Origin: a virus
Virus record (IMG/VR): IMGVR_UViG_3300012971_000002
Coordinates: 1-64,000 of that record
DNA length: 64,000 nt
Reading direction: 5' to 3' (one strand)
The notes under the pieces are model-generated. The model had not been told where the DNA came from and made no database searches. It saw nothing but the letters and a program-made list of their open reading frames with translations. Shown piece by piece: positions 12,741 through 39,483 of the stretch. A program made the translations under genes and the position numbers. The stretch's first letter is position 1. Each line of letters starts with the position of its first letter.

Positions 12741-12755
12741 ACATGAAGTTCGCCA

Positions 12756-13207: not shown

Positions 13208-13214
13208 CGGATGG

Positions 13215-19632: not shown

Positions 19633-19636
19633 GACG

Positions 19637-21229
19637 ATGGCACCGACACTTGAAGAAATTATGAAGTTGCCGGACACGGTAAGTGATGACCACCTTGCCG
19701 CGCTGGGAATTTTGAAGAAGCCCGCACAACCGGCACCGCCTACGCCAATCAAACCGATGGCACCGGCCAGCGCTCGCGATATAGATCTGGCGGTGACCGG
19801 CGCACATGTTGGTCATCCCACGAATATCTCAGAACACAACAAAGAAATTTTGATGAGCGGCGCGGATCCCGGTCTCACGCCAACGGTTGGCGACAAAGGC
19901 GTGCTCACGGCGCTCGCACCGCAACCGCCGAATCTTTCGTTCAAGGAAAAGATGGCATTGCCACAAATGTCCGCGGCCGTGCCGATGGGATCTTCGAACT
20001 ACTACGAAGGCCAGCTACAGCGGGAAGCACTTGCAAAAGAGAATCCATGGGGAAGCGCGGAGAATCATCCGGGCGTACTGGGCAAGATCGGGCATGTGCT
20101 CGGACGTGTCGGCAACATCGCATTCACCGCGGCCGCGCCGGGATTGGCTACGCTCACAGAAGGTACAGATCTCAACAAACTGGCCGTAGCTTCACAGAAC
20201 CGGGAAGCGCTCGAGCGAGCCAAAACTCAGGAACTCGCGGAAGAATCCGAAAAGACACGCGCCAAGCATGAAGAGAACGTTTCGAATATCAACCAAGAAA
20301 AATTGGAAGAAACCGAACGCACCAACCGCGCCAAAGATGAAGTAAATCTCGCGAACCATGGCTTGAAGCGTGATGCGGAAGGGAACATTGTCGCGGATAC
20401 AGAATCGCCGGTCTATCAACAGAATCAGGAGAAGATGAAGAACGCGGCCGCGCTTCGCGACAGCGCCGTTGCCTTGCGGAAGTCCCAAGAGAATTTGAAC
20501 GTGGCGAAGGAAGAGTTCGAGAAGTCCAAGAACGATCCCAATTCGCCACAATATCAGCTTGCGCTGAAGAAACTGGCCGCGGCGAATCTGGCGCATGAAG
20601 TTGCCCAGAAGAATCTCGAATTGCACGAACGCGAGTACGAAAACAAAATAAAGGAACAGGAATTTGTTAAGCCTAGCGGTCAGAGTCAGAGCCGTGGTAG
20701 CGCCGCGCAAGCGGTTCTTGATTTGATCCCAGATCTAAAGAATTTGGTCAACGAACACCGTGCGGACATGGGACCAATTATGGGACGAATCAACCGCGGC
20801 GAACTCGAGATCGGAAACGTGGATCCGGAAATTGCGAAGCTGTATTCCGCGATGAAGTCTTTCTATGCGTTGCAACCGGCCGTGCATGGATTCAAAAACG
20901 CGGAGTTCGTCAAAGACTTCGAGCACGCGCTGGGTACACTCGAGCGGAATCCGGATGCGTTCATCTCCGGTATGGAAGGCTTGAGACCAACACTCGAATC
21001 TGTGGCCAAGGAAGGCAAGACGTTCCACCGGAGAATTGTGGAAGGCCAGCCGACTACTCCGGCCGGTGGCGCTACTCCACCCGCTGGGGGGGGACAACCG
21101 CCACAAGGAAAGTCTTGGGTTTACGATACAAAGGGTGACCGGCACGCGGTCTTCACGAACAAGCTTGATGACTTCCTGAAGGATCCCCAGTATAAGGGCT
21201 GGACCAAGAATGCCCCCACAGTCCACTAG
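19637..21229 (+). CDS. internal-virion-type coiled-coil protein
   Basis: 530 aa; long Lys/Glu/Asn/Ala heptad-like central region; position typical of ejection or core proteins. Confidence 0.6.
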   Translation: MAPTLEEIMKLPDTVSDDHLAALGILKKPAQPAPPTPIKPMAPASARDIDLAVTGAHVGHPTNISEHNKEILMSGADPGLTPTVGDKGVLTALAPQPPNLSFKEKMALPQMSAAVPMGSSNYYEGQLQREALAKENPWGSAENHPGVLGKIGHVLGRVGNIAFTAAAPGLATLTEGTDLNKLAVASQNREALERAKTQELAEESEKTRAKHEENVSNINQEKLEETERTNRAKDEVNLANHGLKRDAEGNIVADTESPVYQQNQEKMKNAAALRDSAVALRKSQENLNVAKEEFEKSKNDPNSPQYQLALKKLAAANLAHEVAQKNLELHEREYENKIKEQEFVKPSGQSQSRGSAAQAVLDLIPDLKNLVNEHRADMGPIMGRINRGELEIGNVDPEIAKLYSAMKSFYALQPAVHGFKNAEFVKDFEHALGTLERNPDAFISGMEGLRPTLESVAKEGKTFHRRIVEGQPTTPAGGATPPAGGGQPPQGKSWVYDTKGDRHAVFTNKLDDFLKDPQYKGWTKNAPTVH

Positions 21230-24017
21230 TGATGATTACGGTCTCGAGAAAGCGCCCATCCCGGCCGTTCTCGATGATAAGTATGGGCTAGAAAAGTCCA
21301 CCGCTACAGCCGCGCCACCCAAGACACAGGCAGAGAAGAACGCCGAAGCACTGAAGACCGTTGGCCGCGTCACGGAGTTCGAAAAGAATCCGGAAGCCCA
21401 ACAGCCCAGCATCTTCCAGACGGCGAAACGAGTTCACGAAGCCGGACAACAGGAAGCGGAAAAATATCTACCGGAATCACTGAAACAGCCTTATCGGGAA
21501 TCACAGGATCTCACGCATCTCGCGATGGGACCGCTCGGAATGGTCTCACCGTATATTCACACCGGACTGGGTAAAGCGGGTGACGTCGCGGCTGAAGAAG
21601 CGGAACGGCAAAAGACTTTGCAGCAACAGGCCGCGGCTCAAGGCAAGCCGATAGATCCGCGTGCTTTCACTGGTGTCGGCGCACTTGGCGCACTCGCTGA
21701 TACCGCACATCTGGGATCTGAGATGTTCACGCCGAAAGGTATCGCCACCACGGCCGGTGCGGTGCTTGCCAATACGAATCCGGTGACCGCTGTTCCAGTA
21801 GATCTTGCTTTCATGGCTCACGGCGCTAAAGGTTTGAGCGAAGCGGCTCCCGAAGCTTTGAAGGGAGATCCGCAAGCGATTCAGAACGCTTTGCTGTCCA
21901 CTTCGGAAATGACCGGAGCCGCGGCCGGACTTCCTGAGAACGTACCGAAGTTTATCCCGGCAGCGAAAACAGCCATCGCCAAAGTTGGCGAACCGTTCCA
22001 CATCGGGATGACCGGCGAAGAACTCCTGAAGAAAGGCGTCTCGCCACGCGCACAAGCCACCGGCTGGGATGAAGCGGTAGCGCGTCCGGGTGTTCAGCGT
22101 GCGCTCGTGGAGCACAACAAAGCCACGCCGATCAACAGCGCCGCGGATCTCGATGAAGCCATCCCGGTGATGAAAGACAAGATCTGGACAGAGAAAGTTG
22201 AACCGGCACTCGAGCGGCAAGGCCAGCGGCCGGTAGACATGAAGCCGGTAGCGGATGCCATCCGTTCGGAAAAAGTAATATCGAAAGAGATGCAACGCTT
22301 TGAACCAGAAGAAGCCGCGAAGCTTAACAAGTTGGCCGATGATCTGAGTCACGCCGAAACCGTGGAAAGCGCAAATGGTCTCTTGAAGTATGTGAACGGA
22401 AAACTCGAAACCTACTTCCAGAAGTATCCCAGCGCACGCCGCGCCAACTTGATGAACAACCCGGAAACAGCCGGATGGGAAGCAGCACGCCAAACCATTC
22501 GTCAGCAATTTCTGAAGACGCTCGAAGATGCCGGGGAAACTCAGGTGCGCGATGCGCGTGGCGATTACGGTGCGCTCGAGACGATGGGCAAAGAAGTGGA
22601 GCGCCGCGTCAATGTGGCCGAACGTCAGAAGCCATGGAGTCTACCGCGGATCTTGGGTGTGACCGGTGCATTGCCTACGGCTGGGACAAGTCTTGCGCTG
22701 GGCGAACTGATTCATCACTTAAACAAGCCGGATGTGCTTATCCGTCGCGGTGTCGGACGGCTTGAGCCACCACCGGAAGCGCCGTTCACGGCACCGCCGA
22801 AGTTCACACCGGCCGCGCCACCGCCACCGGCCGCAACCCAGATCCCGATGAATCTCCCACCGGAGAACGCACCGCTGTTCAACATTCAGCAAACGCCGCG
22901 GCTCCGGCCGGACATGGAAGCGCCGCGGCTTGGTCCGATCACCGGCGAACAGACTCCGCTTCACCTTCCGGAATCGCCGGAGCAAGCGCCACTCTTCAGT
23001 ATTCCGCAAACTCGCGGCAACGTACCCGAGACGCCGAAGATCGGTGGAGAAGGTTTGAAGCTTGGTCCACCGCACAACGTGGAAGCGGAAACGGCCGGAC
23101 TTCCGAAGGTAAAGACCGGCGAAGGCACCGTCACCCGCGGCACAACAGCGAATTTCCAACCGGCGAAAGGCGCGGGCAGACAAGCCACCACGGCCGAAAC
23201 CGCGGAACTTCCCAATCTTCCTAATCCGAAGCCCGCGGATCTCAAGCCGGGAGAAACCGTTCAGGACCGCTTCTTCGATGAGAAGACGAAGCAATGGGCA
23301 CCAGAGCGGCAAGCGAACCACGCGGCTTATGTAGAACACAACCTGAAGGGCAAGGTAGCTCCTACGGATCGGCCACCGGAAGCCACGATCACGATTGGCG
23401 GCACCGGCGCTGGCAAGAGTACGTTCACGCGGAAATATCTCGATGAGAATCCGAACGCCGTGAACGTGGATCCGGATCGAGCGAAGCTATCGGTGCCGGA
23501 ATACGAAGGCTTGAAGAAGACAGATCCGGCGAAGGCGGCGTTCCGAGTACACGAAGAAGCTTCGTCCATGTCCAAGCAACTCCTGAAAGCGGCCGCGGAA
23601 AAGAAGATGGACTTCTTGTATGACACCACTACCGGTGGAAGTGATGCCGCGCTTTACCAGCGCTTAAAGGATGCCGGATACCACGTCCGGATCGTCTATG
23701 TGGATCTCCCGGTGGAAGAAGCCATCAATCGAGCGAAGCTTCGTGCGGAATCAAGTCCAGATCCGGCGAGCCGCGGCCGTGTCGTACCGGAAAACATCAT
23801 CCGGCAGAAACATCAAGAAGCGGCGAATACCTTTATGAAGTTCAAGAACGATCCATCCGTGGATGAGATCCAAGCCTACGATAACAGCGGCAAGAATCTG
23901 GAACCGTTCTATAATCGGAAAGGCACCACGGAAAAGACGTACAACCCGGAAACATTCGAACGTGTTCGCGCCAAGGCAGGAGCCAATGAACCCAAGCCAG
24001 CCGGAAAAGTCCACTAA
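21210..24017 (+). CDS. large virion-module protein with C-terminal zeta-toxin-like P-loop kinase domain
   Basis: 935 aa. C-terminal ITIGGTGAGKSTF...NVDPDRAKLSVPEYEGL...FLYDTTTGG...GYHVRIVYVDLPVEEAI...R...IQAYDNSGK parallels the zeta/PezT layout. Pro-rich linker upstream. Confidence 0.7.
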   Translation: MPPQSTSDDYGLEKAPIPAVLDDKYGLEKSTATAAPPKTQAEKNAEALKTVGRVTEFEKNPEAQQPSIFQTAKRVHEAGQQEAEKYLPESLKQPYRESQDLTHLAMGPLGMVSPYIHTGLGKAGDVAAEEAERQKTLQQQAAAQGKPIDPRAFTGVGALGALADTAHLGSEMFTPKGIATTAGAVLANTNPVTAVPVDLAFMAHGAKGLSEAAPEALKGDPQAIQNALLSTSEMTGAAAGLPENVPKFIPAAKTAIAKVGEPFHIGMTGEELLKKGVSPRAQATGWDEAVARPGVQRALVEHNKATPINSAADLDEAIPVMKDKIWTEKVEPALERQGQRPVDMKPVADAIRSEKVISKEMQRFEPEEAAKLNKLADDLSHAETVESANGLLKYVNGKLETYFQKYPSARRANLMNNPETAGWEAARQTIRQQFLKTLEDAGETQVRDARGDYGALETMGKEVERRVNVAERQKPWSLPRILGVTGALPTAGTSLALGELIHHLNKPDVLIRRGVGRLEPPPEAPFTAPPKFTPAAPPPPAATQIPMNLPPENAPLFNIQQTPRLRPDMEAPRLGPITGEQTPLHLPESPEQAPLFSIPQTRGNVPETPKIGGEGLKLGPPHNVEAETAGLPKVKTGEGTVTRGTTANFQPAKGAGRQATTAETAELPNLPNPKPADLKPGETVQDRFFDEKTKQWAPERQANHAAYVEHNLKGKVAPTDRPPEATITIGGTGAGKSTFTRKYLDENPNAVNVDPDRAKLSVPEYEGLKKTDPAKAAFRVHEEASSMSKQLLKAAAEKKMDFLYDTTTGGSDAALYQRLKDAGYHVRIVYVDLPVEEAINRAKLRAESSPDPASRGRVVPENIIRQKHQEAANTFMKFKNDPSVDEIQAYDNSGKNLEPFYNRKGTTEKTYNPETFERVRAKAGANEPKPAGKVH

Positions 24018-27842: not shown

Positions 27843-28099
27843 TAGCGGGTTGCCTTCGTATAATCTTCGCTTGGCACCAGCCACGCTTCGGATCCGTCAT
27901 CATGGCGCACGGAAAGCGCCGGAACCTTGAGGGATCCTTCCACCATGCCGGTCTGGAATACCGTTCCCAGTTGGCCGGTCTTGCGGTGGCGCACGCGGTC
28001 ATTCACTTTGATCTTCTCCGAGAGCGTGCGCTTGAAGTCATTCTCGAGACGGGCTTGATTCCCGCCGAAGATCTTCTGAAAGAACATAGATGCGGTCAT
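27839..28099 (-). CDS. hypothetical protein
   Basis: 86 aa from ATG forming an ATGA overlap with the NlpC/P60-like gene stop. Confidence 0.5.
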   Translation of the reverse strand: MTASMFFQKIFGGNQARLENDFKRTLSEKIKVNDRVRHRKTGQLGTVFQTGMVEGSLKVPALSVRHDDGSEAWLVPSEDYTKATRY

Positions 28100-28626
28100 T
28101 CGACACCTTCCTTGAACCTGCGAATTGTGACCGGACCGGTGAACCATGGATCCGTTTCCGGTTTGTCTGAAAGTTGAAACTTGGCGATATTGCCGCGCCG
28201 GTAGTCCGCATCAATCCAGCGGCCGGATCCGAGATAGACCGCCACATGCTGGCCATTGAAGTTGGCCACATCTCCCGGCTTTAACAGGTATTCTTTGAGA
28301 TCCGCACGCTGGGCAAAGACGCGGATCACATTCGTCTTGGTCTTCCAGTAGACGAAAGTGAGTTCGTCGCCGTGGGCATTGGCGATAAACTTGGCGCAAT
28401 CCAATTCTTCGGTGTTGGAACGGTAGCCTTCCAGCCACTCGAGACGGGTGAGATAGTTCGAAGGATATGGAAGGTAAGCGCGGTTGTCCCAGAGCCGGAA
28501 CAGCAAGACGGCCGCGGCCAAAAGGATCACAACGGCGAGCGCCGCGACGATCCGGCGCTTGGCATACTGGGAGACAAAATATATTAGAGATCCTAATGAG
28601 ATTCCTAATAGGATTGCCGTTTGCAT
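28096..28626 (-). CDS. membrane-anchored NlpC/P60-like cysteine peptidase
   Basis: LDCAKFIANAH (Cys), KPGDVANFNGQHVAVYLGSGRWIDA (His) fit C40 layout; two N-terminal hydrophobic helices; start 28626 has AAAGGGGAA SD, alternative ATG at 28665. Confidence 0.55.
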   Translation of the reverse strand: MQTAILLGISLGSLIYFVSQYAKRRIVAALAVVILLAAAVLLFRLWDNRAYLPYPSNYLTRLEWLEGYRSNTEELDCAKFIANAHGDELTFVYWKTKTNVIRVFAQRADLKEYLLKPGDVANFNGQHVAVYLGSGRWIDADYRRGNIAKFQLSDKPETDPWFTGPVTIRRFKEGVE

Positions 28627-28747
28627 GTTTCCCCTTTCAGGTATAAAGTATGCCAACTTCGCCATGCAAGGTTAATAGTACCTTTGCTCTAAAAGTGCTT
28701 AAAAAGTAGGTACGTTCGATTCGCCGGACTTTCGCCAAGGGAGAACC

Positions 28748-30610
28748 ATGAAGATCGGAATTGTGACGAATATCAGCGCGGGGATCGGCTTGGCCACCGA
28801 ATATGGGCTTCTTCGCGATTACCTTGAAAAGCTTGGCCACCAAGTAACCGGCTTCCAGTTCGATGAAGAAGCGCCGGAGAAGCTGGAACCGATAGATCTA
28901 ATGATCTCGCTGGAAACCGTGTGCCGTCATCTGGTGGACATCGCGCCGGTCAATTGGCTGATCCCGAATCCGGAATGGACCAAGCCGCACGATCTGGATC
29001 TGATCGGCAGAGCCTACAATAAGATCCTGTGCAAGACGCGGGAAGGCGAGCGGATCTTCAAGTGTTACTTTCCGGACCGGACGCATTATGTAGGCTTTCT
29101 GGCGCGTGACGTCTTCAATCCACAGATCATCCGGAAACAGCGCTTCCTTCACATTGGCGGCAATTCCTCTTTCCGCGGTACTCAAGAAGTGCTCGATGCG
29201 TGGAAGTGGCGCAAGGATGGCTTCCCGATTGGCGCAGAACTCCTGATCGTCAGCAAGGCATTGCGGGAGCGGCCGGAGATCCCGAACGTGAAGTACTTCG
29301 ATTGGCTACCGGAGAACGAACTCCGTACGCTGCAGAATGAATGCCTGTTCCATATCTACCCGTCCGGAACCGAAGGTTTCGGCCACGCTATCCGTGAAGC
29401 GATGAGCACGAACGCCATGGTGCTGACCACGGCCGCACCGCCGATGGATGAGATCCATAGCGCCAGTAAAGTCCAAGCCCACGGTTGGTCCACCTATAAC
29501 CTTGCGAAAGTCTACGAAGTTTCCGCGCTGGATATTCATGTGGCGTGCAAGGAATTTCTTGCGAATAGTTCGCTGTTCGGTTATGGAATCTTCGGGGATT
29601 CACGCGAAGAGTTTTTGCGCGGCAATGAGTTCTTCCGGACCGCTTTCGCGGAACATCTCGAAGACTTCGTGCCGCGCTCCATGCGGATGGCTATCGCTTC
29701 CCGGCAAGGAAAGATGCGGATCTCATTCTTGGGGAATTTCCTTGCGGCCGAAAGCACGGAGAACATGATCCGTTGGGCGCTCGAGCAAGCGCTCGATCAC
29801 AGCGTGGATCTCCTGCAGGAGAACGAAGCCACACTCCGGAAGATAGATCTATCGTGTCGGAACTCGGATCTCTTTCTCTGGGTACGAACTCCCGGCTGGC
29901 TCAAAGTAGAAGACCGGGAAATGTTGGCGTGGCTTGCGGATCGTGGCTACCGGACCGCGAGCATCCATCTGGACAAGTTCTGGGGAATCCCTGAACGGGA
30001 AGCGCTGATCGGCAAGATCCCATTCTGGAAGACGAACTTTGTCTTTACCGCGGACGGTTCACGCGACGAAGACTTCGAAAAAGCCGGTGTCAATCATCAT
30101 TGGATGCAACCGGCTGTCAGCGAAGTCTACGTCCATCCCGGCACACCGCGAGATCACTACCGGTGCGATGTGGGATTCGTAGGCGCAAAGGATTACCACA
30201 GCGAGTATCCCTTCCGGCGTCAGATGGTGGAATTTCTCGAACGGACGTATGGCAACCGCTTCAAGCACATCACCGGGATCCGCGGCCACGAACTGAACGA
30301 TGTCTATGCGAGCATGAAGATCGTGGTGGGTGATTGCATTTTTGCCGGAACGCCGCGGTATTGGTCAGACCGCGTGCCGGAAACAATCGGCCGTCACGGC
30401 TTTCTTCTTCACCCGGAAGTACAGGGCTTGGATCTCCCGGTAGCCACTTACCAGCCGCAAGATCTCAAGTCACTCAAGGAACAGATTGATCTGTGGCTGT
30501 TCAATGAGGGACCGCGGAAAGAAGTGATAAAACAAGGTGTGGAACAGATCCGGCGCGATGATACTTGGACCGTGCGAATGCGCCAGATCTTGGAGATTGT
30601 CACGGCATGA
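28748..30610 (+). CDS. two-domain glycosyltransferase (GT4-like plus CgeB-like C-terminal domain)
   Basis: 620 aa; FHIYPSGTEGFGHAIREAMSTNAMVLTT matches the GT1/GT4 E-x-F-G...EAM motif; C-terminal half resembles Glyco_trans_1_2/CgeB-type; AAGGGAGAA SD. Confidence 0.75.
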   Translation: MKIGIVTNISAGIGLATEYGLLRDYLEKLGHQVTGFQFDEEAPEKLEPIDLMISLETVCRHLVDIAPVNWLIPNPEWTKPHDLDLIGRAYNKILCKTREGERIFKCYFPDRTHYVGFLARDVFNPQIIRKQRFLHIGGNSSFRGTQEVLDAWKWRKDGFPIGAELLIVSKALRERPEIPNVKYFDWLPENELRTLQNECLFHIYPSGTEGFGHAIREAMSTNAMVLTTAAPPMDEIHSASKVQAHGWSTYNLAKVYEVSALDIHVACKEFLANSSLFGYGIFGDSREEFLRGNEFFRTAFAEHLEDFVPRSMRMAIASRQGKMRISFLGNFLAAESTENMIRWALEQALDHSVDLLQENEATLRKIDLSCRNSDLFLWVRTPGWLKVEDREMLAWLADRGYRTASIHLDKFWGIPEREALIGKIPFWKTNFVFTADGSRDEDFEKAGVNHHWMQPAVSEVYVHPGTPRDHYRCDVGFVGAKDYHSEYPFRRQMVEFLERTYGNRFKHITGIRGHELNDVYASMKIVVGDCIFAGTPRYWSDRVPETIGRHGFLLHPEVQGLDLPVATYQPQDLKSLKEQIDLWLFNEGPRKEVIKQGVEQIRRDDTWTVRMRQILEIVTA

Positions 30611-31479
30611 TTCCTGTTCTCTGGCACCACGCGGATAGTTTTTGGGATTGTGCAATGCCGCGGTACATTCTGGATTACGCGACGGAATGTGACCATCAAA
30701 TCCTCAAGCCGGAAGGCTACAACCCGATTGGCCGGATCGGCGTGATCGTGATTCCCGGCCGTCATTCATGTGGCGACTATGAAGTGCTGAACCGTGTGGC
30801 CAGTCTTTACAGCAAAGTAGTCTGGATTATCATTGGCGACGAAGAAGGGATCTTCCACTCCGATCAGTTGCAACATCCGAACCAGCGGCTCTGGTGGTTC
30901 ATGCCACCGATCAATCCCAAGCAAAAAGTGGATGTTCCGGCCATCAACGGCTGGACCACGAAAGCGCTCGATCTGATCTATGAACAGAAGAAGCGGCACC
31001 TTCCGCGTAAGTGGGATTGGTCTTTCTACGGACAGGTGACACACAGCCGTCGCGTGCAATGCGTAGATGCGCTGCAGAGTATTCCGAACGGGGACATCGT
31101 TGTGACGCCGGGATTCTCGCAAGGCGTGCCGCAAGAACAGTACTTTGAAACCATGGTGCAATCGAAGTTTGTTCCTTGTCCGGCCGGTCCGTGTACGGTG
31201 GATTCGTTCCGGTTCGCGGAAGCGCTTGAAGCCGGTTGTATTCCCATCGCAGACAACCGCACCCAGCACGAAAGCTATCCACCGGGATACTGGGAATATG
31301 TTCTCGGAAACAAGTTCTTTCCGTTCTGGGTAATCAACGATTGGGCCAAGTTGCCGGACGTGATCGAGACGTTGCTTCCGAAGTGGAAGGATGTCTCGGA
31401 AGAGTGTATGCACTTCTGGAAGTCCTACAAGAAGTCACTCGTGAGGCAAATGCGAAAGGATCTCGAATGCGAGATATAA
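30607..31479 (+). CDS. exostosin/GT47-like glycosyltransferase
   Basis: 290 aa, ATGA overlap; FVPCPAGPCTVDSFRFAEALEAGCIPI matches the exostosin-family C-terminal motif. Confidence 0.6.
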   Translation: MIPVLWHHADSFWDCAMPRYILDYATECDHQILKPEGYNPIGRIGVIVIPGRHSCGDYEVLNRVASLYSKVVWIIIGDEEGIFHSDQLQHPNQRLWWFMPPINPKQKVDVPAINGWTTKALDLIYEQKKRHLPRKWDWSFYGQVTHSRRVQCVDALQSIPNGDIVVTPGFSQGVPQEQYFETMVQSKFVPCPAGPCTVDSFRFAEALEAGCIPIADNRTQHESYPPGYWEYVLGNKFFPFWVINDWAKLPDVIETLLPKWKDVSEECMHFWKSYKKSLVRQMRKDLECEI

Positions 31480-32183
31480 CCGTGGTGATTCCCACTTCAC
31501 CGATCCCGGCGCATCCTTCCACGGAGATTATCGAGCGCACGATCCAATCCATCCGGAAACATTTACCGGATTCTGAGATCGTCATCATGTGTGATGGCGT
31601 GCGGCCGGAAGTGGAACATCGCAGCAAGCAATACCGGGAATACCTTGTCTACCTGATCGAACAGGTGAATTTCAGGTATGCCAACGTTTTAATCTGTCCC
31701 TTTGCGAAGCACCTACAGCAAGCCGGAATGATGAAGGCAACTATGGCGTGGTGCCACACGCCGCTTGTTCTTTTCTGTGAGCACGACGCCACGATTGATG
31801 ACAAGCCGATTGATTGGCTGGGAATCCGCTGGATGCTGGCTTCCGAAAAAGCCAATACAGTTCGCTTCTACTGGCACGAAACCTTGCACCCGGAGCACCA
31901 GCATCTCTTCGGGGAACGCGAAGGGGACTTCGTTAAAACGATCCAGTGGTCTTCGTGGCCGCACGTCTCCCGCACGGACTTCTATCGGCGCATTCTGGAC
32001 GAATACTTTTCCGGCGATGATTGCAAGATGATCGAAACCGTGATGTACTCGCCGGTCTTGGAATTGCCGTGGGAAAAGTTCAAGACATGGATTTACGCTC
32101 CCGAGCCGGACGCTATCCGCTTCCACCATCTGGATGCACGGCGAGATCCGGTAACAGGCGAAAAAGATCCGGGGAGTTGGTAA
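31467..32183 (+). CDS. GT-A fold glycosyltransferase (GT2-like)
   Basis: 238 aa; ITVVIPTSPIPAHPS...VIMCDG N-terminus; 13-nt overlap with upstream gene. Confidence 0.55.
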   Translation: MRDITVVIPTSPIPAHPSTEIIERTIQSIRKHLPDSEIVIMCDGVRPEVEHRSKQYREYLVYLIEQVNFRYANVLICPFAKHLQQAGMMKATMAWCHTPLVLFCEHDATIDDKPIDWLGIRWMLASEKANTVRFYWHETLHPEHQHLFGEREGDFVKTIQWSSWPHVSRTDFYRRILDEYFSGDDCKMIETVMYSPVLELPWEKFKTWIYAPEPDAIRFHHLDARRDPVTGEKDPGSW

Positions 32184-32938
32184 TGGCTGAATCGCAAGAA
32201 GATGTGATCGGCAAGATGCAAGTCTGGGCATGGAACGAGATTGCTCGAGTTCATCCGGAGATCAAACCGCACTTTTTCAGTTTCGATGATCCGTACATGA
32301 TAAGTGAGATCGTAGCGCGTGACACTTACCGCTTCCGTGCCAAGCCCGGAGATCGTGTCATGGACATCGGCGCGAACGTAGGAGTCTTCACAACGTTGTG
32401 TGCGGTGAACGGCGCACAAGTAACCGCCTACGAACCACACCCGGAAGCTTATCTCATCTTGCTGGACACGATTCAGCGGAGCGGCATCCAAGACCGCGTG
32501 ATCCCGAAACAAATGGCTGTGTGGACGCATTCCGGCCAGTGTGCATACCATCCGGGCAAGACTCCGGCGCATAGCCATCCCGGCCAGACATGGGATTCCT
32601 ACAATGGCGCTGTGGTGTGGCCGGACAATTCCGGACCGGCGAACATGGCATGTGTTTCCTTCGAAGACGCCATCGGACTCGAAGACTGGGATTGCGTAAA
32701 GATGGACATCGAAGGCGCGGAGTTTGAACTTCTCCTGACCGCACCGCTTGAAGCGTTACTACGGATCAAATACCTGACACTGGAACTCCACAACGGCTGG
32801 GCTGAGAAACCGGCTTATGATGCGCTGATCGAACTATTGGGCAAGTTCTTCAAGCTTGAAGGAACTCCGGACGGGGATCCCCGCTTCGCCGGAGAAGACC
32901 GTTTCATTTCCGTCTATGCAACACGAAAGGCACTTTGA
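32183..32938 (+). CDS. FkbM-family SAM-dependent methyltransferase
   Basis: 251 aa, TAATG overlap; VMDIGANVGVFT...AYEPHPEAY...KMDIEGAEFELL. Confidence 0.75.
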   Translation: MAESQEDVIGKMQVWAWNEIARVHPEIKPHFFSFDDPYMISEIVARDTYRFRAKPGDRVMDIGANVGVFTTLCAVNGAQVTAYEPHPEAYLILLDTIQRSGIQDRVIPKQMAVWTHSGQCAYHPGKTPAHSHPGQTWDSYNGAVVWPDNSGPANMACVSFEDAIGLEDWDCVKMDIEGAEFELLLTAPLEALLRIKYLTLELHNGWAEKPAYDALIELLGKFFKLEGTPDGDPRFAGEDRFISVYATRKAL

Positions 32939-33774
32939 TGACTACCTTGTTGATGACCGGCGCAACCGGCTTTGCTGGCCGCGCTGTAGTGAATGAAGTT
33001 CTCACTCGAACCGATTGGAATATCGCCTCATTTCAAAGAGAGTGTGGAAAATTCGAATCGGAAAGAGTGGTGGAAATTCCTTGGGACTTCAAACATCCGA
33101 TGCTGGAAGCGTATATGCGTGTTCCTGTTGATGCTGATATGTTTTTCCTTCATCTTGGTGCCGATGTCCATGCTCTGCGTTCCTTGAAGGATCCGGCTTC
33201 TTTTGTAGAAACCAACGTAATGGGGACCGCCAACGTGCTCGATCTTGCTCGCCGGATGGATGTGGATCTCTTTGCTTACGTTTCCACCGGCGAAGTCTTT
33301 GGTGGCCGCGACGATGGCTACAGCAACGAAGAGGATCCGCACCGGCCGTCCAATCCTTACGCTGCAACCAAAGCCGCGGGCGAACTCCTGACGTACAGCT
33401 ATCACCGCGCTTTTGATCTACCGGCAATCATCGTGCGGACACTAAACATCTTCAGTATGGATCAAAAGGATCCGTCCAAGTTCGTGCCGATTGTCCGCAA
33501 AGCGCTCGAGACCGGCGAGACGATGAAGCTTCATGCGAAAGATGGAAGACCGGGAGTCCGTCAGTGGCTCCATGTCACCGCTTTCGCCAATCAACTAGTG
33601 GATCTCCTGAAAACTGCAACCATCGGCAAGTCATACCATCTCTACGGGGAAGAACTGAACAACCTGCAGATGGCCCAGCGTGTGGCCACGGAACTGGGCA
33701 AGGAACTGAAGTACGAATTTATCCGGATGCCGAAGACGCACGAATACCGTTATGCGATGGCGAGAAACCGATGA
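32935..33774 (+). CDS. NAD-dependent sugar epimerase/reductase (extended SDR)
   Basis: 279 aa, ATGA overlap; MTGATGFAGRAV Rossmann motif and YAATKAAGE (YxxxK). Confidence 0.8.
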   Translation: MMTTLLMTGATGFAGRAVVNEVLTRTDWNIASFQRECGKFESERVVEIPWDFKHPMLEAYMRVPVDADMFFLHLGADVHALRSLKDPASFVETNVMGTANVLDLARRMDVDLFAYVSTGEVFGGRDDGYSNEEDPHRPSNPYAATKAAGELLTYSYHRAFDLPAIIVRTLNIFSMDQKDPSKFVPIVRKALETGETMKLHAKDGRPGVRQWLHVTAFANQLVDLLKTATIGKSYHLYGEELNNLQMAQRVATELGKELKYEFIRMPKTHEYRYAMARNR

Positions 33775-34724
33775 CAACTTGCCTTGTGACCGGTGGGGCT
33801 GGATTCCTTGGCTCGCACCTTGTGAAGCATCTTCTCGAGCACACGGATTGGAACATCAAGGTGTGGGACAGCTTCACCTATGCCGCGATGGGTGGCGAAC
33901 GGCTGAAAGGCTTGGCGAAAAATAGCCGCTTCGACCTGACTGTGATAGACGTGAACCATGCGGATTATCAGGAGCTGGATCCGTCCATCAAATACATCGC
34001 GCATCTTGCCGCGGAAACTCACGTCACGCGAAGTATCGAGAAGGCTAGACCGTTTCTCTATTCCAATATCTTTGGAACTTATTCCATGCTCGAGTTCGCC
34101 CGTCAGTTGCCGAACCTGAAAAAGTTCCTGTACTTCTCCACTGATGAAGTTTTTGGCTCGTCAGATCTAACCGAAGAGTATTTCGGGGAATGGTCTCGTT
34201 ACCGGAGCGGGAATCCCTATGCGGCCACCAAAGCGGCCGGGGAAGAACTCGCATTGGCATGGTGCAATACTTTCGGTGTGCCGGTAGTGATCTCGCACTG
34301 TTCGAACCTGTTCGGGGAAGGCCAGCATCCAGAGAAGTTCATTCCACGGATAATCTACGAGATCTCTCGAGATCGGGAAGTGGTCATTCACGCCAAACCA
34401 AACGGCGAGCCGGGGCGACGGATGTACGTCTACGTTGGCGACGTCGCGGCCGCAATTAAGTTACTTCTCGAGCAAGCGGAGATCCATTGCAAGTACAACA
34501 TCCCCGGCGTTACTTTTTCCAATCTTGAAATTGCGGAGAAGATCAGCGGGATGATTGGGAAAAAATTAAAGTACTCACTGGCTTATCCGCACAAAGAACG
34601 GCCGGGATGGGACTTCTCCTATAACATTTCCGGTGATGCCATCAAAGAATATGGCTGGGAGCGCGGGGACTTCGATACACAGCTTCAGCAAACGATCCAG
34701 AGTGAGTTTGTATGCCGCGGGTAA
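33771..34724 (+). CDS. NDP-sugar 4,6-dehydratase-like SDR (RfbB-like)
   Basis: 317 aa, ATGA overlap; VTGGAGFLGSHL, STDEVFG, YAATKAAGE, NLFGEGQHPEKFIPR. Confidence 0.75.
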   Translation: MTTCLVTGGAGFLGSHLVKHLLEHTDWNIKVWDSFTYAAMGGERLKGLAKNSRFDLTVIDVNHADYQELDPSIKYIAHLAAETHVTRSIEKARPFLYSNIFGTYSMLEFARQLPNLKKFLYFSTDEVFGSSDLTEEYFGEWSRYRSGNPYAATKAAGEELALAWCNTFGVPVVISHCSNLFGEGQHPEKFIPRIIYEISRDREVVIHAKPNGEPGRRMYVYVGDVAAAIKLLLEQAEIHCKYNIPGVTFSNLEIAEKISGMIGKKLKYSLAYPHKERPGWDFSYNISGDAIKEYGWERGDFDTQLQQTIQSEFVCRG

Positions 34725-35359
34725 ACACGAAGAGTGATTCCTACGAAGCACTATGCTGGGACGTCATCACCAACGTACACCGCTACATTCCGAAGCCAAG
34801 AGATCGTGTACTGGATCTCGGCGCTCACTTCGGCGTGTTCTCGCTGTACTGTGCGGCACGCGGTTGCTATGTCAAAGCTGTGGAACCGAATCCCGAAGTG
34901 CTGGTGGAACTTGTTCACTCCGCGGCCGTGGCGAACGACATCGGAAATGGAAAGATCGAGATCGTCAACGCGGCCGTTGCGGATAAATACAGAAAGGGTT
35001 TCCTTTGGCACTTTCCGGAAACCAGTGCAATCAATACCATCATGGGACGTTCCGGATCCGATGGCTGTATAGAAGTCCAATGCTTCTCGCTGGCCGATCT
35101 CTTGGGTGAAAGCTATTGGGATTGTGTCAAGGTGGACATTGAAGGTGCGGAATACGAAACATTTATGGCCGCGTCAGAAGCAACCTTGGAGCGGATCGGC
35201 TACCTGACCATGGAAATTCACACAGATCTCATTCCGCAAGGCCAATGCCAAGAACTCGTGAAGAAGCTGGAACAAAACTTCGATTCAACTTCCAAGCTTT
35301 ACCTGAAATGGAATGGCGAACAGACTGACATCGTGACAGCCATCTACTGTTGGAGATGA
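34712..35359 (+). CDS. FkbM-family SAM-dependent methyltransferase
   Basis: 215 aa; VLDLGAHFGVFSLYCAARG...AVEPNPEV...KVDIEGAEYE. Confidence 0.75.
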   Translation: MPRVNTKSDSYEALCWDVITNVHRYIPKPRDRVLDLGAHFGVFSLYCAARGCYVKAVEPNPEVLVELVHSAAVANDIGNGKIEIVNAAVADKYRKGFLWHFPETSAINTIMGRSGSDGCIEVQCFSLADLLGESYWDCVKVDIEGAEYETFMAASEATLERIGYLTMEIHTDLIPQGQCQELVKKLEQNFDSTSKLYLKWNGEQTDIVTAIYCWR

Positions 35360-35363
35360 ATTT

Positions 35364-35687
35364 TTGTCTTTCTTTATACATGGCCATGCCACTGATAATG
35401 GAAGAACCGCCGAGTACGATGCTTGGCATAACATGCTTCAACGTTGCACAAATCCCAATCGTCCGGGCTATAGAGATTATGGTGCTCGCGGGATAAAGGT
35501 GTGTGTCCGATGGCGTGTTTTTGTAAATTTTTTGATGGATATGGGAAGAAAGCCTTCTGAAAAACACAGCATAGATCGAATCAACAATAACGGGAACTAT
35601 GAACCAGAAAATTGCCGTTGGGCCACCCGATCTCAGCAACAATCTAATCAACGAAAGCGCCGAAAGAAAGGATCTATTCATGCGTGA
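35364..35687 (+). CDS. small HNH/AP2-like DNA-binding protein (family often annotated HNH endonuclease)
   Basis: 107 aa, TTG start; EYDAWHNMLQRCTNP...YGARGIKVC..W..F..FL.DMG.KP....IDRINNNGNYEPENCRWAT; visibly A/T-richer than flanks. Confidence 0.6.
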   Translation: MSFFIHGHATDNGRTAEYDAWHNMLQRCTNPNRPGYRDYGARGIKVCVRWRVFVNFLMDMGRKPSEKHSIDRINNNGNYEPENCRWATRSQQQSNQRKRRKKGSIHA

Positions 35688-36624
35688 ATTGGTATTGGTT
35701 ACAACCTATAAAAGAAGATTCTTGTTGTTTTCCTGCCTTGAGCGAATCCGTACTTATGGGAAGGATATTCCTATCTGTGTTTTTTCAGATCGTGGAGCCA
35801 TGGAAGGCATGGATGTAGCGGAGATGTTTAAGGCTAAATGGATCCAGATGCCGGATCACGATTATTACGGAAACAGCTACAACACCATGGAAGCATACCG
35901 CTTCGCTTATAACTCCGGCGCGGATCTAACGTATCTGATTGAAGACGATGTGATGATCCACCCGGACTTCTTCGACTGGCACCGCAAGATGCACGAAGAA
36001 TGGACGGATATTTTTGCGGCTTTAGGGTGGGTATTTAATCAACACGCTCCTATAGATCACGGTGATATGTTTCAGCCGTGGATCTATTCAATTGGTCTAA
36101 GCCTGACGCGGGAGAAATTGCGGTTAGTTTCGGAGCACGCATCGCCGCGGTACTACGCCGACATGCCGGGATATATCCGTGACACCTTTCCGGCGAGTAG
36201 CTTCAATGTGCCATTCCAGATGGCCCACGTCGAACAGGACGGACTGATCCAAAGGATCTTGGAGAAGGATCGAAGCCAAACGGTTTCATCCGGCATCGCG
36301 CACTGTAGTCACATCGGCATGGGTGGCTATAACCGCGGATGGTCCAGCTATGCGAAGTTTTTCCACGGCATAGATCACTACGAAGACGCGGCCAAGAAAG
36401 TGGATGCGCTACTTGCGGATCCGTACTGGCGCATCTCGCTGTTCGGCCGGGGAATTGTAGAGCGCGAAGTGGGACAGGAGATCCCGGCACGTCAGTTGGA
36501 TTACCGGATCCGGTTCGATGGCTGGGAATCCGAGTTCACGAGCGAGATGAGCCGGGATCACCTTCCGAAGCGGATCAACAGCGCAGAAATTCCGGAGCAC
36601 GCGGAAATTGTGCTAATATCCTGA
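35680..36624 (+). CDS. GT-A-like glycosyltransferase candidate
   Basis: 314 aa from ATG 35680; LVLVTTYKRRFLL...LIEDDV (DxD-like); weak by-eye call. Confidence 0.5.
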   Translation: MRELVLVTTYKRRFLLFSCLERIRTYGKDIPICVFSDRGAMEGMDVAEMFKAKWIQMPDHDYYGNSYNTMEAYRFAYNSGADLTYLIEDDVMIHPDFFDWHRKMHEEWTDIFAALGWVFNQHAPIDHGDMFQPWIYSIGLSLTREKLRLVSEHASPRYYADMPGYIRDTFPASSFNVPFQMAHVEQDGLIQRILEKDRSQTVSSGIAHCSHIGMGGYNRGWSSYAKFFHGIDHYEDAAKKVDALLADPYWRISLFGRGIVEREVGQEIPARQLDYRIRFDGWESEFTSEMSRDHLPKRINSAEIPEHAEIVLIS

Positions 36625-36673: not shown

Positions 36674-37195
36674 ATGTCATCCTATGGTTTTAGATTTGGA
36701 TTCGGATTTTCTGGTGGCGGTGCGGGCGTGACACCCCCCGGTGGCACGAGTGGCGAAGTCCAATTCAATGACTCCGGAGTATTCGGCGGGATTGCCACTT
36801 CCGTCTTCGATAAGAGCACCCAATCGCTGAGTTTCGCTTTTTCTGGCGCAAGTTCCGGATTTGAAATAAATCCGGATGATGGCGGCGCGAACTCCACAAA
36901 TTCAATTTTCAGCGGCGCTTCTATAGCTCTTTCTTCGAGTGGTGGAACTTCCCTTACTTTAGACAATTCCGGAGTAAGTACGGTTCTTGGAAGCATCACA
37001 TCTGTTTTCTCCGTGAAAGATTCAGGATCGAGTCCGATCATTCAAGCGACACACGATACCAAGCTGGGATTCTTTGCAGCACCGCCAATTGCCAAGCCAA
37101 CTGTTACCGGTGCGAAGCTTCCATCCGATGTGGTGATGGCCAGTTTGCTTACCGCTTTGAAAAATTTGGGACTGATTACGGATTCCACAACTTGA
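36674..37195 (+). CDS. tail fibre-like protein
   Basis: 173 aa; GTSGEVQFNDSGVFGG N-terminal motif and C-terminal ASLLTALKNLGLITDST, both common in phage fibre proteins. Confidence 0.6.
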   Translation: MSSYGFRFGFGFSGGGAGVTPPGGTSGEVQFNDSGVFGGIATSVFDKSTQSLSFAFSGASSGFEINPDDGGANSTNSIFSGASIALSSSGGTSLTLDNSGVSTVLGSITSVFSVKDSGSSPIIQATHDTKLGFFAAPPIAKPTVTGAKLPSDVVMASLLTALKNLGLITDSTT

Positions 37196-37212: not shown

Positions 37213-37899
37213 ATGCCACCTTACAACAGCAATCCGGGTAAAAACACCGCGATGCAATGCCTTACTCCCGGCGTTCCGGCATACGCTTTCGGTTCGAAGC
37301 CACTGAACCAACCCACCACGCTTCTTCAGGTGACGAACGTGGCGCTCACAAGCAACGTTGCCACGGTCACAGTTCAGGTGCGTGAAGGAAGCATCCCGGC
37401 CGTTGGTTCGCTTATTTCGATCACTGGAACTTCGAACACCGCTGGCCTGTTCAATGTCACCGGAAAAGCAATCACCGGCGTTTCCATCAATTCCTCAACT
37501 GGAATCGGCACGATTACTTTCGCACTTACTCATGCCGATGTGGTTTCCGCGGCCGATTCTGGACAAGGCTATGTTCCGGTTCCGGAGACGGCCGAAGCCG
37601 CTGTCGCTGCCACCAAGAGTCAGGCGTTCGCTATTCAAAACACGATTGGCCGTGGCTATGGGATAACTTGGGCATTCACCTATCCATCGGCACCGGCTTC
37701 CGCTTCGATCCAACTGGAAGGTGCGGTCAACGATGTGGATGGCGAATACACGATCATTGGCAGCGCTCAAACCGGCGTGAGCGGTTATGTGGAAATTCCT
37801 GCAACGCTTCCTACACTGGTGAATTTCGTTCGCTTGAATCTGACGGCTTTGAGCGGTGGCGCGAGTCCTACAGTAGTAGGCAAGATCTTAGTTTCGTAA
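37213..37899 (+). CDS. hypothetical tail-associated protein
   Basis: 228 aa; contains a copy of the beta-rich module (VGSLISITGTSNTAGLFNVTGKAI). Confidence 0.55.
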   Translation: MPPYNSNPGKNTAMQCLTPGVPAYAFGSKPLNQPTTLLQVTNVALTSNVATVTVQVREGSIPAVGSLISITGTSNTAGLFNVTGKAITGVSINSSTGIGTITFALTHADVVSAADSGQGYVPVPETAEAAVAATKSQAFAIQNTIGRGYGITWAFTYPSAPASASIQLEGAVNDVDGEYTIIGSAQTGVSGYVEIPATLPTLVNFVRLNLTALSGGASPTVVGKILVS

Positions 37900-37920: not shown

Positions 37921-39483
37921 ATGTCGAATCCTGTAGTGGTGTCATTTGGCGATTCCATGACACAAGGCGCGTCCGCAGCCGCGAATAATCTGTACGCGCC
38001 TTACCCGTATTTACTCGCCATGCCCGGACTTTGGAACACCTTTGACAAAGGTGTGAACGGAAACACCGTTGCCAACATGCTGACAACGTACACAACTCAA
38101 GTGAGTCCGTTGTTCGATGCCACGGCTCCGGCTAATGTCTGCATTGTTTTTGCTGGCACAAATGATTTTGCGATAAACGGTGCCACTGTCGCCACAACTT
38201 ACGCGAATCTTGTCACGCTTTGTCAGGCGATTCGAGCGGTTGGCTTCAAAGTGGTGGTGGTTCAGATGCCAAGCCGGACAGGGAACAATGCAATTGGTGG
38301 CGAATCACTGGACACCGATAAGACAGCATACAATGCGCTGATTGATGCCAACTGGACAACCTTCGCGGATGCGGAATTTGTTCTTCCTTCCACGATCACC
38401 GCGAACGGTTCCTTCTCCAACACCACTTATTTCCAGACCGATGGAGTTCATCCGAATCAGTTCACGCACAACACGATTTTTGGACCGGGGTTGACCACGA
38501 TCATCACTCCATACGGTCCTGCTGGAACTACCAACACGAACCTTCCGCTGGCAACGGATTCTTTTGTCCGCGCCGATGAAAACCCGCTGAATGCCAGCAC
38601 TTGGGGAATCCCCACCGGCGCTTCGGCTTTGAAATTAGTGAGCAATACAGTTCAGGCCAGCGCTGGTGGTGTGTTCGCTACGGAATATACGAAGCAAGGG
38701 CCAGCATCGTGGCCGGTAGACAATTATTCACAAGCTGTAGCGGTGTCATCTGCAAATAGCCAATTCCCCAGTGTTGCCACTCGCATTCAAACAGGGATTC
38801 GGACGTGGTACATCGCACAACTAACTTGCGGTGCTGGTGCGACGATTCCAACTGGGACTGGAACTACTCTAGGGAATACAACGCCTATAAATATCGTCAA
38901 AAACATAAACACCGTACAAACAACACTCGCCACCGGACAAGGAACAGCGTGGCAACCCGGAGATATTTTAGAAATTGAAACTGTAGGAACGACCATCAAC
39001 GCTTATCAATTGTGCGCTGGTGGTGTCACGAAGATTCTGCGAGCAACTGCCACTGATGCCGTAATCGCTTCAGGACTTCCCGGCATAAGCATCGTAAATC
39101 TTGTTGCTTCGTTTGGCGCGTGGACTGGTGGAGCGGTCAATGCCACCAGTGCCATTTCCGCTGGATCACCGCAAGCGGCAAAACTGAACACGACTTTCGC
39201 AACGAATCTAGCGGTGATCGTGCGCGATTCAAAAGGAAATGCAATTCAAGGCATCACGGTGACATTCACCGCACCGGGGAGCGGCCCAAGTGGAACGTTC
39301 GCCGGTGGCGTCAATACGGCTGTCACCAATGCGAGCGGCATTGCCACCGCACCGGCTTTCACGTCCAATGGTTTTGGTGGAAGCTATGCCGTTGTGGCGT
39401 CCGTACCGGGACTAGCCAATCTTTCTTTCAATCTAGTCAACGGTGGTGGCGACTTAGCGTTCGACTTCAGATTCAGGTTTTAG
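37921..39483 (+). CDS. SGNH/GDSL hydrolase with C-terminal Ig-like domain (tail-associated esterase candidate)
   Basis: 520 aa; VVSFGDSMTQG (block I), VFAGTNDF (block III), DGVHPN (block V); C-terminus ITVTFTAPGSGPSGTF...NASGIATAP resembles a bacterial Ig-like domain. Confidence 0.75.
   Translation: MSNPVVVSFGDSMTQGASAAANNLYAPYPYLLAMPGLWNTFDKGVNGNTVANMLTTYTTQVSPLFDATAPANVCIVFAGTNDFAINGATVATTYANLVTLCQAIRAVGFKVVVVQMPSRTGNNAIGGESLDTDKTAYNALIDANWTTFADAEFVLPSTITANGSFSNTTYFQTDGVHPNQFTHNTIFGPGLTTIITPYGPAGTTNTNLPLATDSFVRADENPLNASTWGIPTGASALKLVSNTVQASAGGVFATEYTKQGPASWPVDNYSQAVAVSSANSQFPSVATRIQTGIRTWYIAQLTCGAGATIPTGTGTTLGNTTPINIVKNINTVQTTLATGQGTAWQPGDILEIETVGTTINAYQLCAGGVTKILRATATDAVIASGLPGISIVNLVASFGAWTGGAVNATSAISAGSPQAAKLNTTFATNLAVIVRDSKGNAIQGITVTFTAPGSGPSGTFAGGVNTAVTNASGIATAPAFTSNGFGGSYAVVASVPGLANLSFNLVNGGGDLAFDFRFRF

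Follow-up and report, generated by a model that had tools for sequence, protein, structure and literature searches.

A soluble nine-gene glycan-assembly cassette in an uncultivated phage lineage: a candidate system for virion glycosylation

When a phage encodes a set of sugar-modifying and sugar-transferring enzymes, is the glycan placed on its own virion, on the host envelope, on its DNA or on some other cytoplasmic product? This question is raised by a block of nine open reading frames (ORFs), g1 to g9, which lie on the plus strand at positions 28748-36624 of a 64,000-nucleotide stretch of viral DNA (IMG/VR record IMGVR_UViG_3300012971_000002, positions 1 to 64,000; hereafter the window), covering 64 of the about 67 kb (67,105 bp) of a phage genome. 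In those parts of the literature that are open to searching, glycosylated phage virions are demonstrated for no more than a few mycobacteriophages, in which the modification changes how antibodies recognise the particle. The original prediction, which was made from the sequence alone, regarded the block as a glycan pathway with a cytoplasmic acceptor, probably a virion protein. Our analysis points in the same direction. The block would be a self-contained cytoplasmic glycan-assembly cassette of a tailed phage of ~67 kb, and we put the chance that it glycosylates one or more virion proteins with methylated sugars at about one in two.

The nine genes were described at the outset as tightly packed, with overlaps or gaps of at most 4 nt, and reading each junction from the sequence bore this out. 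The overlaps are 4 nt (ATGA) at g1/g2, 13 nt at g2/g3, 1 nt at both g3/g4 and g4/g5, 4 nt at g5/g6, 13 nt at g6/g7 and 8 nt at g8/g9, and a single 4-nt gap separates g7 from g8. Homology supports the start codons chosen for g2 (ATG, 30607), g3 (31467), g4 (32183), g5 (32938) and g6 (33771). The start of g8 was placed at a TTG (35364), with PHROG and relative alignments opening at residues 4-11 of its product, and that of g9 at an ATG (35680), from which the alignment with homologues of 314-320 residues runs from residue 1. Because tight packing is usual in phage operons, it is unremarkable on its own.

Family membership was confirmed for seven of the nine products, weakly for g3, and through structure for g9. 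These results uphold the families first proposed for g1, g2, g4 to g7 and g9, leave the GT2 label of g3 weak, and take g8 out of the pathway. The first gene, g1 (28748-30610), encodes a 620-residue fusion of two GT-B (GT4-like) glycosyltransferase (GT) modules. The N module (g1N, residues ~1-305) matches PF00534 (Glycos_transf_1) and PF13692 (Glyco_trans_1_4), and a disordered linker (residues 310-319) joins it to a CgeB-like C module (g1C, residues ~320-620) that matches PF13524 (Glyco_trans_1_2). In the AlphaFold2 model (mean pLDDT 89.7), the halves form two separate Rossmann-pair modules of GT-B type, and the Foldseek neighbours are GT4-like: PimA, SenB, ManT (the methylmannose-polysaccharide mannosyltransferase), MshA/BshA, PglA, WaaA and a GT of chlorovirus NY2A. 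Other phages encode g1N and g1C as separate genes.

The second gene, g2 (30607-31479, 290 residues), encodes a GT47/exostosin-like glycosyltransferase resembling RXYLT1_C. Its score against PF24785 (RXYLT1_C) passes the cutoff marginally (29.2 bits, cutoff 27), that against PF03016 (Exostosin_GT47) falls below the cutoff (24.7 bits), and a profile search gave a weak match to exostosin-1 (E 0.12). The product of g3 (31467-32183, 238 residues), whose gene is paired with or fused to g2 throughout, matched PF00535 (GT2) under the gathering cutoff (E 0.005, 17.2 bits, cutoff 23.3), and a profile search of the PDB with it returned no match. Four of its residues, D43 and E105-H106-D107, are invariant, and in a weak hhalign alignment with g9 the N-terminal strands correspond and the EHD triplet of g3 stands opposite an EDD triplet of g9. 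Thus, g3 is a probable GT-A glycosyltransferase, the least secure of the nine assignments. The last gene of the cassette, the conserved g9 (35680-36624, 314 residues), has no Pfam match. Its AlphaFold2 model (mean pLDDT 93.6) is a single Rossmann-like GT-A domain, for which Foldseek gave POMGnT1, GnT-I and GnT-II (GT13, GT16) as best neighbours (E about 1e-11, TM about 0.5) and a probability of 1.0 to GT13, GT16 and GT2 structures. An acidic DXD-type motif, E88-D89-D90, follows a beta-strand; its E88 and D90 never vary, and D89 is retained in at least 90% of the sequences. From this model we are confident in assigning g9 to the GT-A fold glycosyltransferases. Over 30-35 homologues of about 50% identity, the catalytic and DXD-type motifs are invariant.

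Between g3 and g9 lie genes predicted to make and methylate a sugar. The 317-residue product of g6 (33771-34724) is an RmlB-like nucleoside diphosphate (NDP)-hexose 4,6-dehydratase with intact STDE and YAATK catalytic motifs, and its best PDB matches are 6vlo (E 1e-47), which we take to be the mimivirus R141 dehydratase, and 2hun (E 1e-46). Since its score against the TIGR01181 equivalog (E 1.2e-68, 231.6 bits) lies below the cutoff of 365.1, we place it in the wider NDP-hexose 4,6-dehydratase family. The preceding gene, g5 (32938-33774, 278 residues), encodes a paralogue of g6 in the extended short-chain dehydrogenase/reductase (SDR) family (PF01370, E 1.8e-33), and its best PDB matches are likewise dTDP-glucose 4,6-dehydratases (E 2.7e-29). 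When the two are aligned, g5 keeps YAATK, has a shorter C-terminus, and carries STGE in place of STDE. Because the Asp of the dehydratase Asp-Glu catalytic pair has become Gly, we rejected a second dehydratase and consider g5 to be probably a dehydratase-derived NDP-4-keto-6-deoxyhexose reductase or epimerase. Two FkbM-family methyltransferases dependent on S-adenosylmethionine (SAM) flank these genes: g4 (32183-32938, 251 residues; PF05050, E 9e-9, 36.1 bits, cutoff 22.7; TIGR01444, 63.5 bits, cutoff 37.7) and g7 (34712-35359, 215 residues; PF05050, E 1.5e-14, 54.9 bits; TIGR01444, 65.5 bits, against the same cutoffs). The small g8 (35364-35687, 107 residues), originally listed among the pathway genes, was rejected as such. 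Its product matches phrog_374 (E 1.6e-41) as an HNH endonuclease, and in relatives the gene shifts position or is missing, as a mobile, selfish insertion would.

Read together, these assignments suggest a short series of reactions. First, g6 would convert host dTDP- or UDP-glucose into an NDP-4-keto-6-deoxyglucose; we take the host to supply the activated sugar, as we found no phage nucleotidyltransferase. Second, g5 would reduce or epimerise the 4-keto intermediate to an NDP-6-deoxyhexose. Third, the five GT domains (g1N, g1C, g2, g3 and g9) would build a short oligosaccharide stepwise on a structural protein, with the capsid-like protein, a downstream gene product that we call d2 and the Ser/Thr-rich large virion proteins as candidates. 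Fourth, g4 and g7 would O-methylate sugar hydroxyls with SAM, and the outcome would be a virion bearing methylated deoxy-sugar glycans. The acceptor, the identity of the sugar, the order of the reactions and expression late in infection are the parts of this scheme that we infer.

The case for a cytoplasmic acceptor began with the absence of membrane steps, and both observations behind it hold. Hydrophobic segments strong enough to span a membrane are absent from all nine products, the highest 19-residue Kyte-Doolittle mean being 1.27 against a threshold of 1.6 (a simple hydropathy measure, as distinct from DeepTMHMM). Pfam scans of the about 86 ORFs in the window recovered a small terminase subunit, RecT, a HerA/FtsK-like ATPase, DUF5131 and an NT5C nucleotidase, and found no priming phosphoglycosyltransferase, flippase (Wzx), polymerase (Wzy), ligase, Gtr protein (GtrA, GtrB and the type-specific GT-C included), nucleotidyltransferase or acyltransferase gene, and no integrase or lysogeny gene. 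However, peripheral, non-initiating glycosyltransferases of O-antigen and capsule pathways normally lack transmembrane segments too, and can use undecaprenyl-linked acceptors. It is therefore conceivable that the enzymes act at the cytoplasmic face of the membrane on host intermediates linked to undecaprenyl phosphate, which the host then exports, so that O-antigen, capsule, teichoic-acid-like or S-layer glycans are remodelled and superinfection is blocked or trapping on debris is reduced. The virion SGNH esterase encoded downstream, which suggests an acetylated polysaccharide receptor, would suit such a role, and among the fold neighbours of g1 are PimA, PglA and WaaA, which are directed at lipids or polysaccharides. 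The lack of lysogeny genes and of every membrane component sought speaks against remodelling of the envelope, as do the comparative results below, and we regard it as unlikely.

Comparison with related phages bears more directly on the acceptor. More than 200 homologues of g1 were found, on contigs no longer than about 68 kb, and the top 120 are nearly all full length, at 47-83% identity. The largest of these contigs group at 65-68 kb, and none is embedded in a chromosome. The 133 homologues of g9 lie nearly all on contigs of the same size class, with one match on a contig of 70.6 kb. Thus, g1, g2, g3 and g9 belong to the core gene set of a lineage that is abundant but uncultivated and has more than 100 relatives; megablast of the cassette block against cultured phages gave no match. 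Gene order is shared: in the ten IMG/VR relatives and one contig of a metagenome-assembled genome that we compared, the order g1 ... g2-g3 ... g9 ... d2 is kept, and all five genes are present in every relative examined. The methyltransferase and SDR genes of the interior vary. Relatives carry zero to four FkbM genes, Methyltransf_24, Methyltransf_11, an extra GT2/GT7C or a second copy of g3, and three of them have one SDR gene, compared with two in the window; the SDRs of relatives retain S-D-E and YxxxK motifs. Constant GT genes around a variable methyltransferase/SDR interior therefore suggest a constant core glycan with variable decoration.

A fixed frame around a changing interior also resembles surface-glycan loci under diversifying selection, as expected if the host envelope were the target. 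However, surface-glycan genes captured recently from a host would have close relatives in bacteria, and g1 and g9 have almost none. The same data bear on whether the block is an inactive or decaying cluster of accessory (moron) genes. Such a cluster could account for the lost catalytic residue of g5, the selfish insertion of g8 and the scores of g3 below Pfam thresholds, but the ORFs are all intact and tightly coupled, the catalytic motifs are invariant and the module persists in more than 100 relatives, and we give decay hardly any credence. Insertions do enter the cassettes of relatives, namely HNH endonucleases, a C5 DNA-methylase-like gene and a helicase-methylase. The C5 DNA-methylase-like ORF lies, with HNH genes, inside the cassettes of L004 and L007 (11748-12656 in both), and L004 has in addition a 746-residue helicase/methylase at 16915-19155. 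From these sequences, the glycan cassette appears to be a hotspot for mobile insertions.

Outside the lineage, the module turns up on different phage backbones. A pattern scan based on the g1 alignment, over 185,579 prokaryotic species genomes (one per species), returned three weak relatives, one of which, L015, is a different phage. Its genes run from terminase, Mu-type portal, Mu F and S78 prohead protease through a g1C-like GT, a radical-SAM gene, an FkbM gene, a g2+g3 fusion ORF, a g1N-like GT and a 272-residue protein to the major capsid protein. The g2+g3 fusion occupies 10228-11946 in L015, 13675-15444 in L056 and 11640-13889 in L058, and in all three phages separate genes encode g1N and g1C. 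Fusion and splitting of the two pairs of GT modules thus run in opposite fashion between lineages, and the gene fusions indicate that the modules act as one unit.

Several of these loci lie among head genes. In the Hainich groundwater phage L056, head genes are followed by a GT, two methyltransferases, the g2+g3 fusion, a pyruvyltransferase, a GT4, a cement protein and a probable capsid protein, such that the cassette genes stand between the prohead protease and the capsid/cement genes. L057 has the same head genes with a GT directly after the prohead protease, and no capsid gene was identified downstream. L058 combines terminase, GT, methyltransferase, the g2+g3 fusion, FkbM, GT2 and a fused GT4+PF13524 protein; L062, an actinobacterial phage encoding Lsr2, has GT, Methyltransf_24, SDR, g2, g3 and GT4; and in a Nocardia prophage (L054) a GT-FkbM-GT4 trio lies just upstream of the terminase, portal and capsid genes. 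The families themselves are large. Stand-alone g1C-like proteins number 2802 at E<=1e-5, with at least 535 IMG/VR stretches, and the g2 family comprises 1196 representative clusters, of whose best 150 about half are 500-600 residues long, the size of a g2+g3 fusion. The original remark that a pathway of this size would be unusual in a phage was overstated, as the core GT families have hundreds to thousands of metagenomic relatives, many of them on phage contigs.

The cassette is core to its lineage and nearly absent from bacterial genomes, and its modules move between unrelated phage backbones, are fused in ways that point to joint action, and recur in structural modules. Together, these patterns favour an acceptor that is specified by the phage and travels with the module, namely a virion protein. 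The placement between prohead protease and capsid genes spans phages of evidently different hosts, which is hard to square with a host-specific, lipid-linked acceptor in the envelope. Readings based on the host envelope or on DNA fit this comparative pattern less well than a virion acceptor does, and they are weakened further because no lysogeny genes, membrane glycan machinery or hydroxymethylase/TET enzymes were found in the window.

Which virion protein might be modified? The first candidate is a capsid-like protein of 448 residues (7253-8599, plus strand), the most conserved protein examined in the lineage, at 66-97% identity in 36 IMG/VR loci. Because neither Pfam nor PHROG gave a match, its presumed identity as the major capsid protein is drawn from conservation and gene order. 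The prediction had pointed to a Ser/Thr/Val-rich tail on this protein. The tail amounts to an eight-residue motif, AAVPSVTS, which is conserved in the lineage, AVPSVTS being kept with at most two substitutions in 20 of 20 relatives read; the motif may mark a conserved site of modification or play a structural part. The second candidate, d2 (37213-37899, plus strand), is a conserved, Ser/Thr-rich protein of 228 residues (Ser+Thr 21.5%). It shares a domain of ~84 residues with the 1535-residue virion-block protein at 13304-17911 (BLASTP, 38% identity, E 1e-10) and is probably structural. In most of the ten syntenic relatives d2 follows g9 directly; one small ORF intervenes in L002 and L009, and in the window a gene termed d1 does.

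Several results nevertheless weigh against a virion acceptor, together with the solubility of peripheral surface-glycan transferases already described. The capsid tail is a weak argument. Its AVPSVTS motif is not shared by the capsid C-termini of unrelated phages that carry the module. Profiles of g1, g2, g3 and g9 compared with Che8 gp108-110 and Corndog gp37-38 gave nothing better than E 0.13, so that only analogy connects the cassette with the proven mycobacteriophage system. In a census of 15 diverse IMG/VR loci, Pfam was run on 143 ORFs of at least 200 residues within 7 kb of a GT. It counted FkbM 10 times, GT1-type families 8 and 6, GT2 7, portal 3, RXYLT1_C 3, DNA methylase 2, DnaB 2, capsid 1 and S78 protease 1. 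Structural genes are thus near only a minority of the loci (portal in at most three), and DnaB, DNA methylase and RNA ligase genes lie near the GT in some. Methyltransferases and further GTs are the commonest partners. Head genes often lie close by, though not in every case, and we rejected a head-module location as a general rule. In a 42.7 kb phage contig (L061, 10001-16873), a GT-FkbM-GT4 trio sits directly upstream of QueD, QueE, QueC and FolE. Two loci are bacterial (L055, 10001-12810, binned as Byssovorax, and L063, 7693-10864), in which a g1C-like GT is followed by a larger protein with a g1N-like module, adjoining divergent VgrG/PAAR genes of a type VI secretion or phage-tail-like system. 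Accordingly, the cytoplasmic and probably virion acceptor of the original prediction gains from the comparative context and loses from the lack of Che8/Corndog homology and from the minority of structural neighbours.

The position of the L061 trio beside 7-deazaguanine genes may be a link to DNA modification, or coincidence. If the GTs attached sugars to a modified base, as happens in T-even phages and in glycosylation clusters that depend on 5hmC or 5hmU, the phage could evade restriction. Phage GT-A and GT-B enzymes are known to add mono- to trisaccharides to DNA, from clusters that can adjoin structural genes (Pyle et al., bioRxiv 10.1101/2023.12.21.572611). In addition, the C5 DNA-methylase-like ORFs of L004 and L007 lie in the cassette, and an NT5C 5'-deoxynucleotidase gene lies upstream in the window. 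The methylase ORFs, however, behave as mobile insertions alongside HNH genes. Neither a thymidylate-synthase-like hydroxymethylase nor a TET/5mYOX dioxygenase was found in the window scans, and hydroxymethylase/TET-type families are absent from the 25 most frequent families in the neighbourhoods of the 15 census loci. Five GT domains, two to five O-methyltransferases, a 6-deoxyhexose pathway and the pyruvyltransferase of L056 also exceed known DNA glycans. We consider hypermodification of DNA very unlikely.

The bacterial loci and the early or replication regions in which some relatives lie raise a further alternative, that the product stays in the cytoplasm and serves host takeover, either as a free or carrier-bound polymethylated saccharide or through glycosylation of a host protein or small molecule. 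The resemblance of g1 to ManT, a soluble enzyme of the cytoplasmic methylmannose polysaccharides of mycobacteria, and to SenB, MshA and BshA would agree with this, as would the pairing of GTs with FkbM enzymes in the window and the VgrG/PAAR genes beside the bacterial homologues. Likeness at the level of fold does not define an acceptor, however. The cassette is core to the lineage, a structural-looking d2 regularly comes after g9, and placement in the head modules of several phages is unexpected for host takeover. A non-virion product thus seems distinctly doubtful to us.

Glycosylation of virion proteins remains the reading that we prefer, with what probability the named alternatives leave falling to functions not foreseen here, and it may extend beyond this lineage. 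We tentatively propose that g1N, g1C, g2 and g3, together with FkbM enzymes, form a widespread and mostly phage-borne machine that decorates capsid proteins or other parts of the virion with O-methylated sugars while still in the cytoplasm. By the same tentative reasoning, it might serve many unrelated lineages of environmental phages beyond the actinophages, as a bacterial-virus counterpart of the chlorovirus system, with the variable methyltransferase/SDR interior possibly yielding differing virion glycan variants, which here would include 6-deoxy sugars. If this is true, glycan-coated phage particles would be common in nature, with consequences for adsorption, environmental stability, grazing, immune recognition and the design of phage therapy. 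Compact, operon-encoded and soluble GTs, O-methyltransferases and deoxy-sugar enzymes could also prove useful for glycoengineering.

The cassette shares its strand with the virion block and is bounded by that block on one side and by d2, the SGNH esterase gene and the lysis genes on the other. Beyond g9 and a 49-nt gap that holds a weak hairpin, the same strand encodes d1 (36674-37195), d2, an esterase of the GDSL/SGNH type that carries an Ig-like domain (37921-39483) and two holin-like ORFs with a single transmembrane segment each, before a convergent gene for an M15-type endolysin ends the unit. The cluster had been placed upstream of tail-fibre and esterase genes; the esterase was confirmed, and the tail-fibre label for d1 and d2 was not. 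The arrangement fits a single transcription unit from 28748 to about 40010. Promoter- and terminator-like sites were found at the counts expected by chance from shuffled sequence. The endolysin gives a weak hint of a Gram-negative host. Divergent from g1, an ORF at 28096-28665 (minus strand) encodes 189 residues, which match NlpC/P60 weakly (E 1e-3) and begin with one or two hydrophobic segments near the N-terminus; the product is probably a peptidoglycan hydrolase anchored in the membrane and standing outside the glycan pathway.

Elsewhere in the window, the large proteins of the virion block at 2941-21229 (863, 472, 448, 312, 1535 and 530 residues) match nothing in Pfam or PHROG, although hits up to E 5 were admitted; the phage group is deeply divergent and undescribed. 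The 935-residue virion-block protein at 21210-24017 (plus strand) has a C-terminal Zeta-toxin-like P-loop domain, UDP-GlcNAc-kinase-like (PF06414, E 1.7e-31, residues 717-896), matches phrog_16619 ("minor head protein") and may be an ejected effector. The sole ORF of the gene set with four hydrophobic segments (232-996, minus strand, 254 residues) has no family match and lies 28 kb from the cassette; another, at 61435-61938 (minus strand), has three. A HerA/FtsK-like ATPase (DUF87) is encoded at 42600-44330 (minus strand). In the relative L013, its counterpart (11860-13587) lies directly downstream of g1, inside the cassette, which implies rearrangement between the two regions. Also on the minus strand are a DUF5131 (Gp37/Gp68) gene at 44605-45618 (E 4.5e-91), of a kind common to many actinophages and other phages, and a RecT-family gene at 49084-50613, whose 509-residue product is long for the family. 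One small ORF encodes the C-terminal domain of RNA polymerase alpha (E 3e-18) and a second one the C-terminal helix-turn-helix domain of DnaA (E 2e-12); both are possible host-takeover regulators. A search for tRNA genes in the window found none.

How does the cassette compare with known systems? Autonomous, virus-encoded virion glycosylation is already known from chloroviruses, mimiviruses and mycobacteriophages. For the last of these, the searchable literature describes glycosylation of the virions of Che8, Corndog and Myrna by phage GTs (Freeman 2023, via PMC12363180, PMC12619734 and PMC11256854), and it names Che8 gp110 and Corndog gp38 as essential (PMC12363180; also PMC12619734, PMC11256854 and PMC13313380). 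The likeness lies in soluble phage GTs within or beside structural modules, in the methyltransferases of some actinophages and in the proposed glycan on capsid or tail. In Corndog, the gene for the capsid maturation protease comes directly after gp37-38, a placement of gp38 that L015, L056 and L057 parallel, and GT genes beside a virion structural module, a trait of Che8 and Corndog, are seen in the window and in the same three phages. In contrast to the mycobacteriophages, the present cassette has five GT domains (two GT-B, one GT47-like and two GT-A), together with an NDP-sugar 4,6-dehydratase and its paralogue.

Among cultured phages, tblastn searches of a phage collection with g1, g9 and P0341 matched Streptomyces phages only, and g2 and g3 had no cultured-phage homologue. 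Satis gp53 corresponds to g1N (E 5e-57), Satis gp54 to g9 (E 8e-44) and Yara gp28 to g1C (E 2e-59). The Satis GTs lie between capsid and tail genes, and Yara gp28 lies after large tail proteins with a methyltransferase, gp30, two genes downstream. Unlike the fused modules of g1, these are separate genes; they occur without g2, g3 or an SDR, and they are annotated as "glycosyltransferase" only. Because cultured phages such as Satis, Yara and their relatives carry true homologues, the question of virion glycosylation is directly testable.

In the chloroviruses, soluble GTs and methyltransferases make methylated, rhamnose-containing capsid glycans (PMC9614988). The chlorovirus PBCV-1 and mimivirus share with the cassette mostly soluble viral GTs, sugar O-methyltransferases, an NDP-glucose 4,6-dehydratase and multidomain GTs; chlorovirus capsids carry methylated 6-deoxyhexoses (PMC9614988), and the GT of NY2A is a fold neighbour of g1. 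However, these are eukaryotic giant viruses with scattered genes and N-linked glycans, and the likeness holds only at the level of fold and family. Conversion by GtrABC prophages is similar in being a phage-borne glycan modification, but it needs the membrane proteins GtrA and GtrB, a type-specific Gtr and a lysogen, and neither these proteins nor an integrase was found in the window. DNA-hypermodification clusters (T-even phages; the 5mYOX- and ThyS-dependent clusters of Pyle et al.) also contain GT-A and GT-B enzymes, sometimes several and sometimes near structural genes. In contrast to the cassette, they need an enzyme that forms hydroxymethyl-pyrimidines and are without sugar O-methyltransferases and deoxy-sugar genes. 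The searchable literature yielded no description of a module of the g1-g9 type. What sets it apart from the known systems are the GT families themselves, the fused two-module g1, the g2-g3 pairing, the deoxy-sugar branch within the cassette and the breadth of the system in environmental phages.

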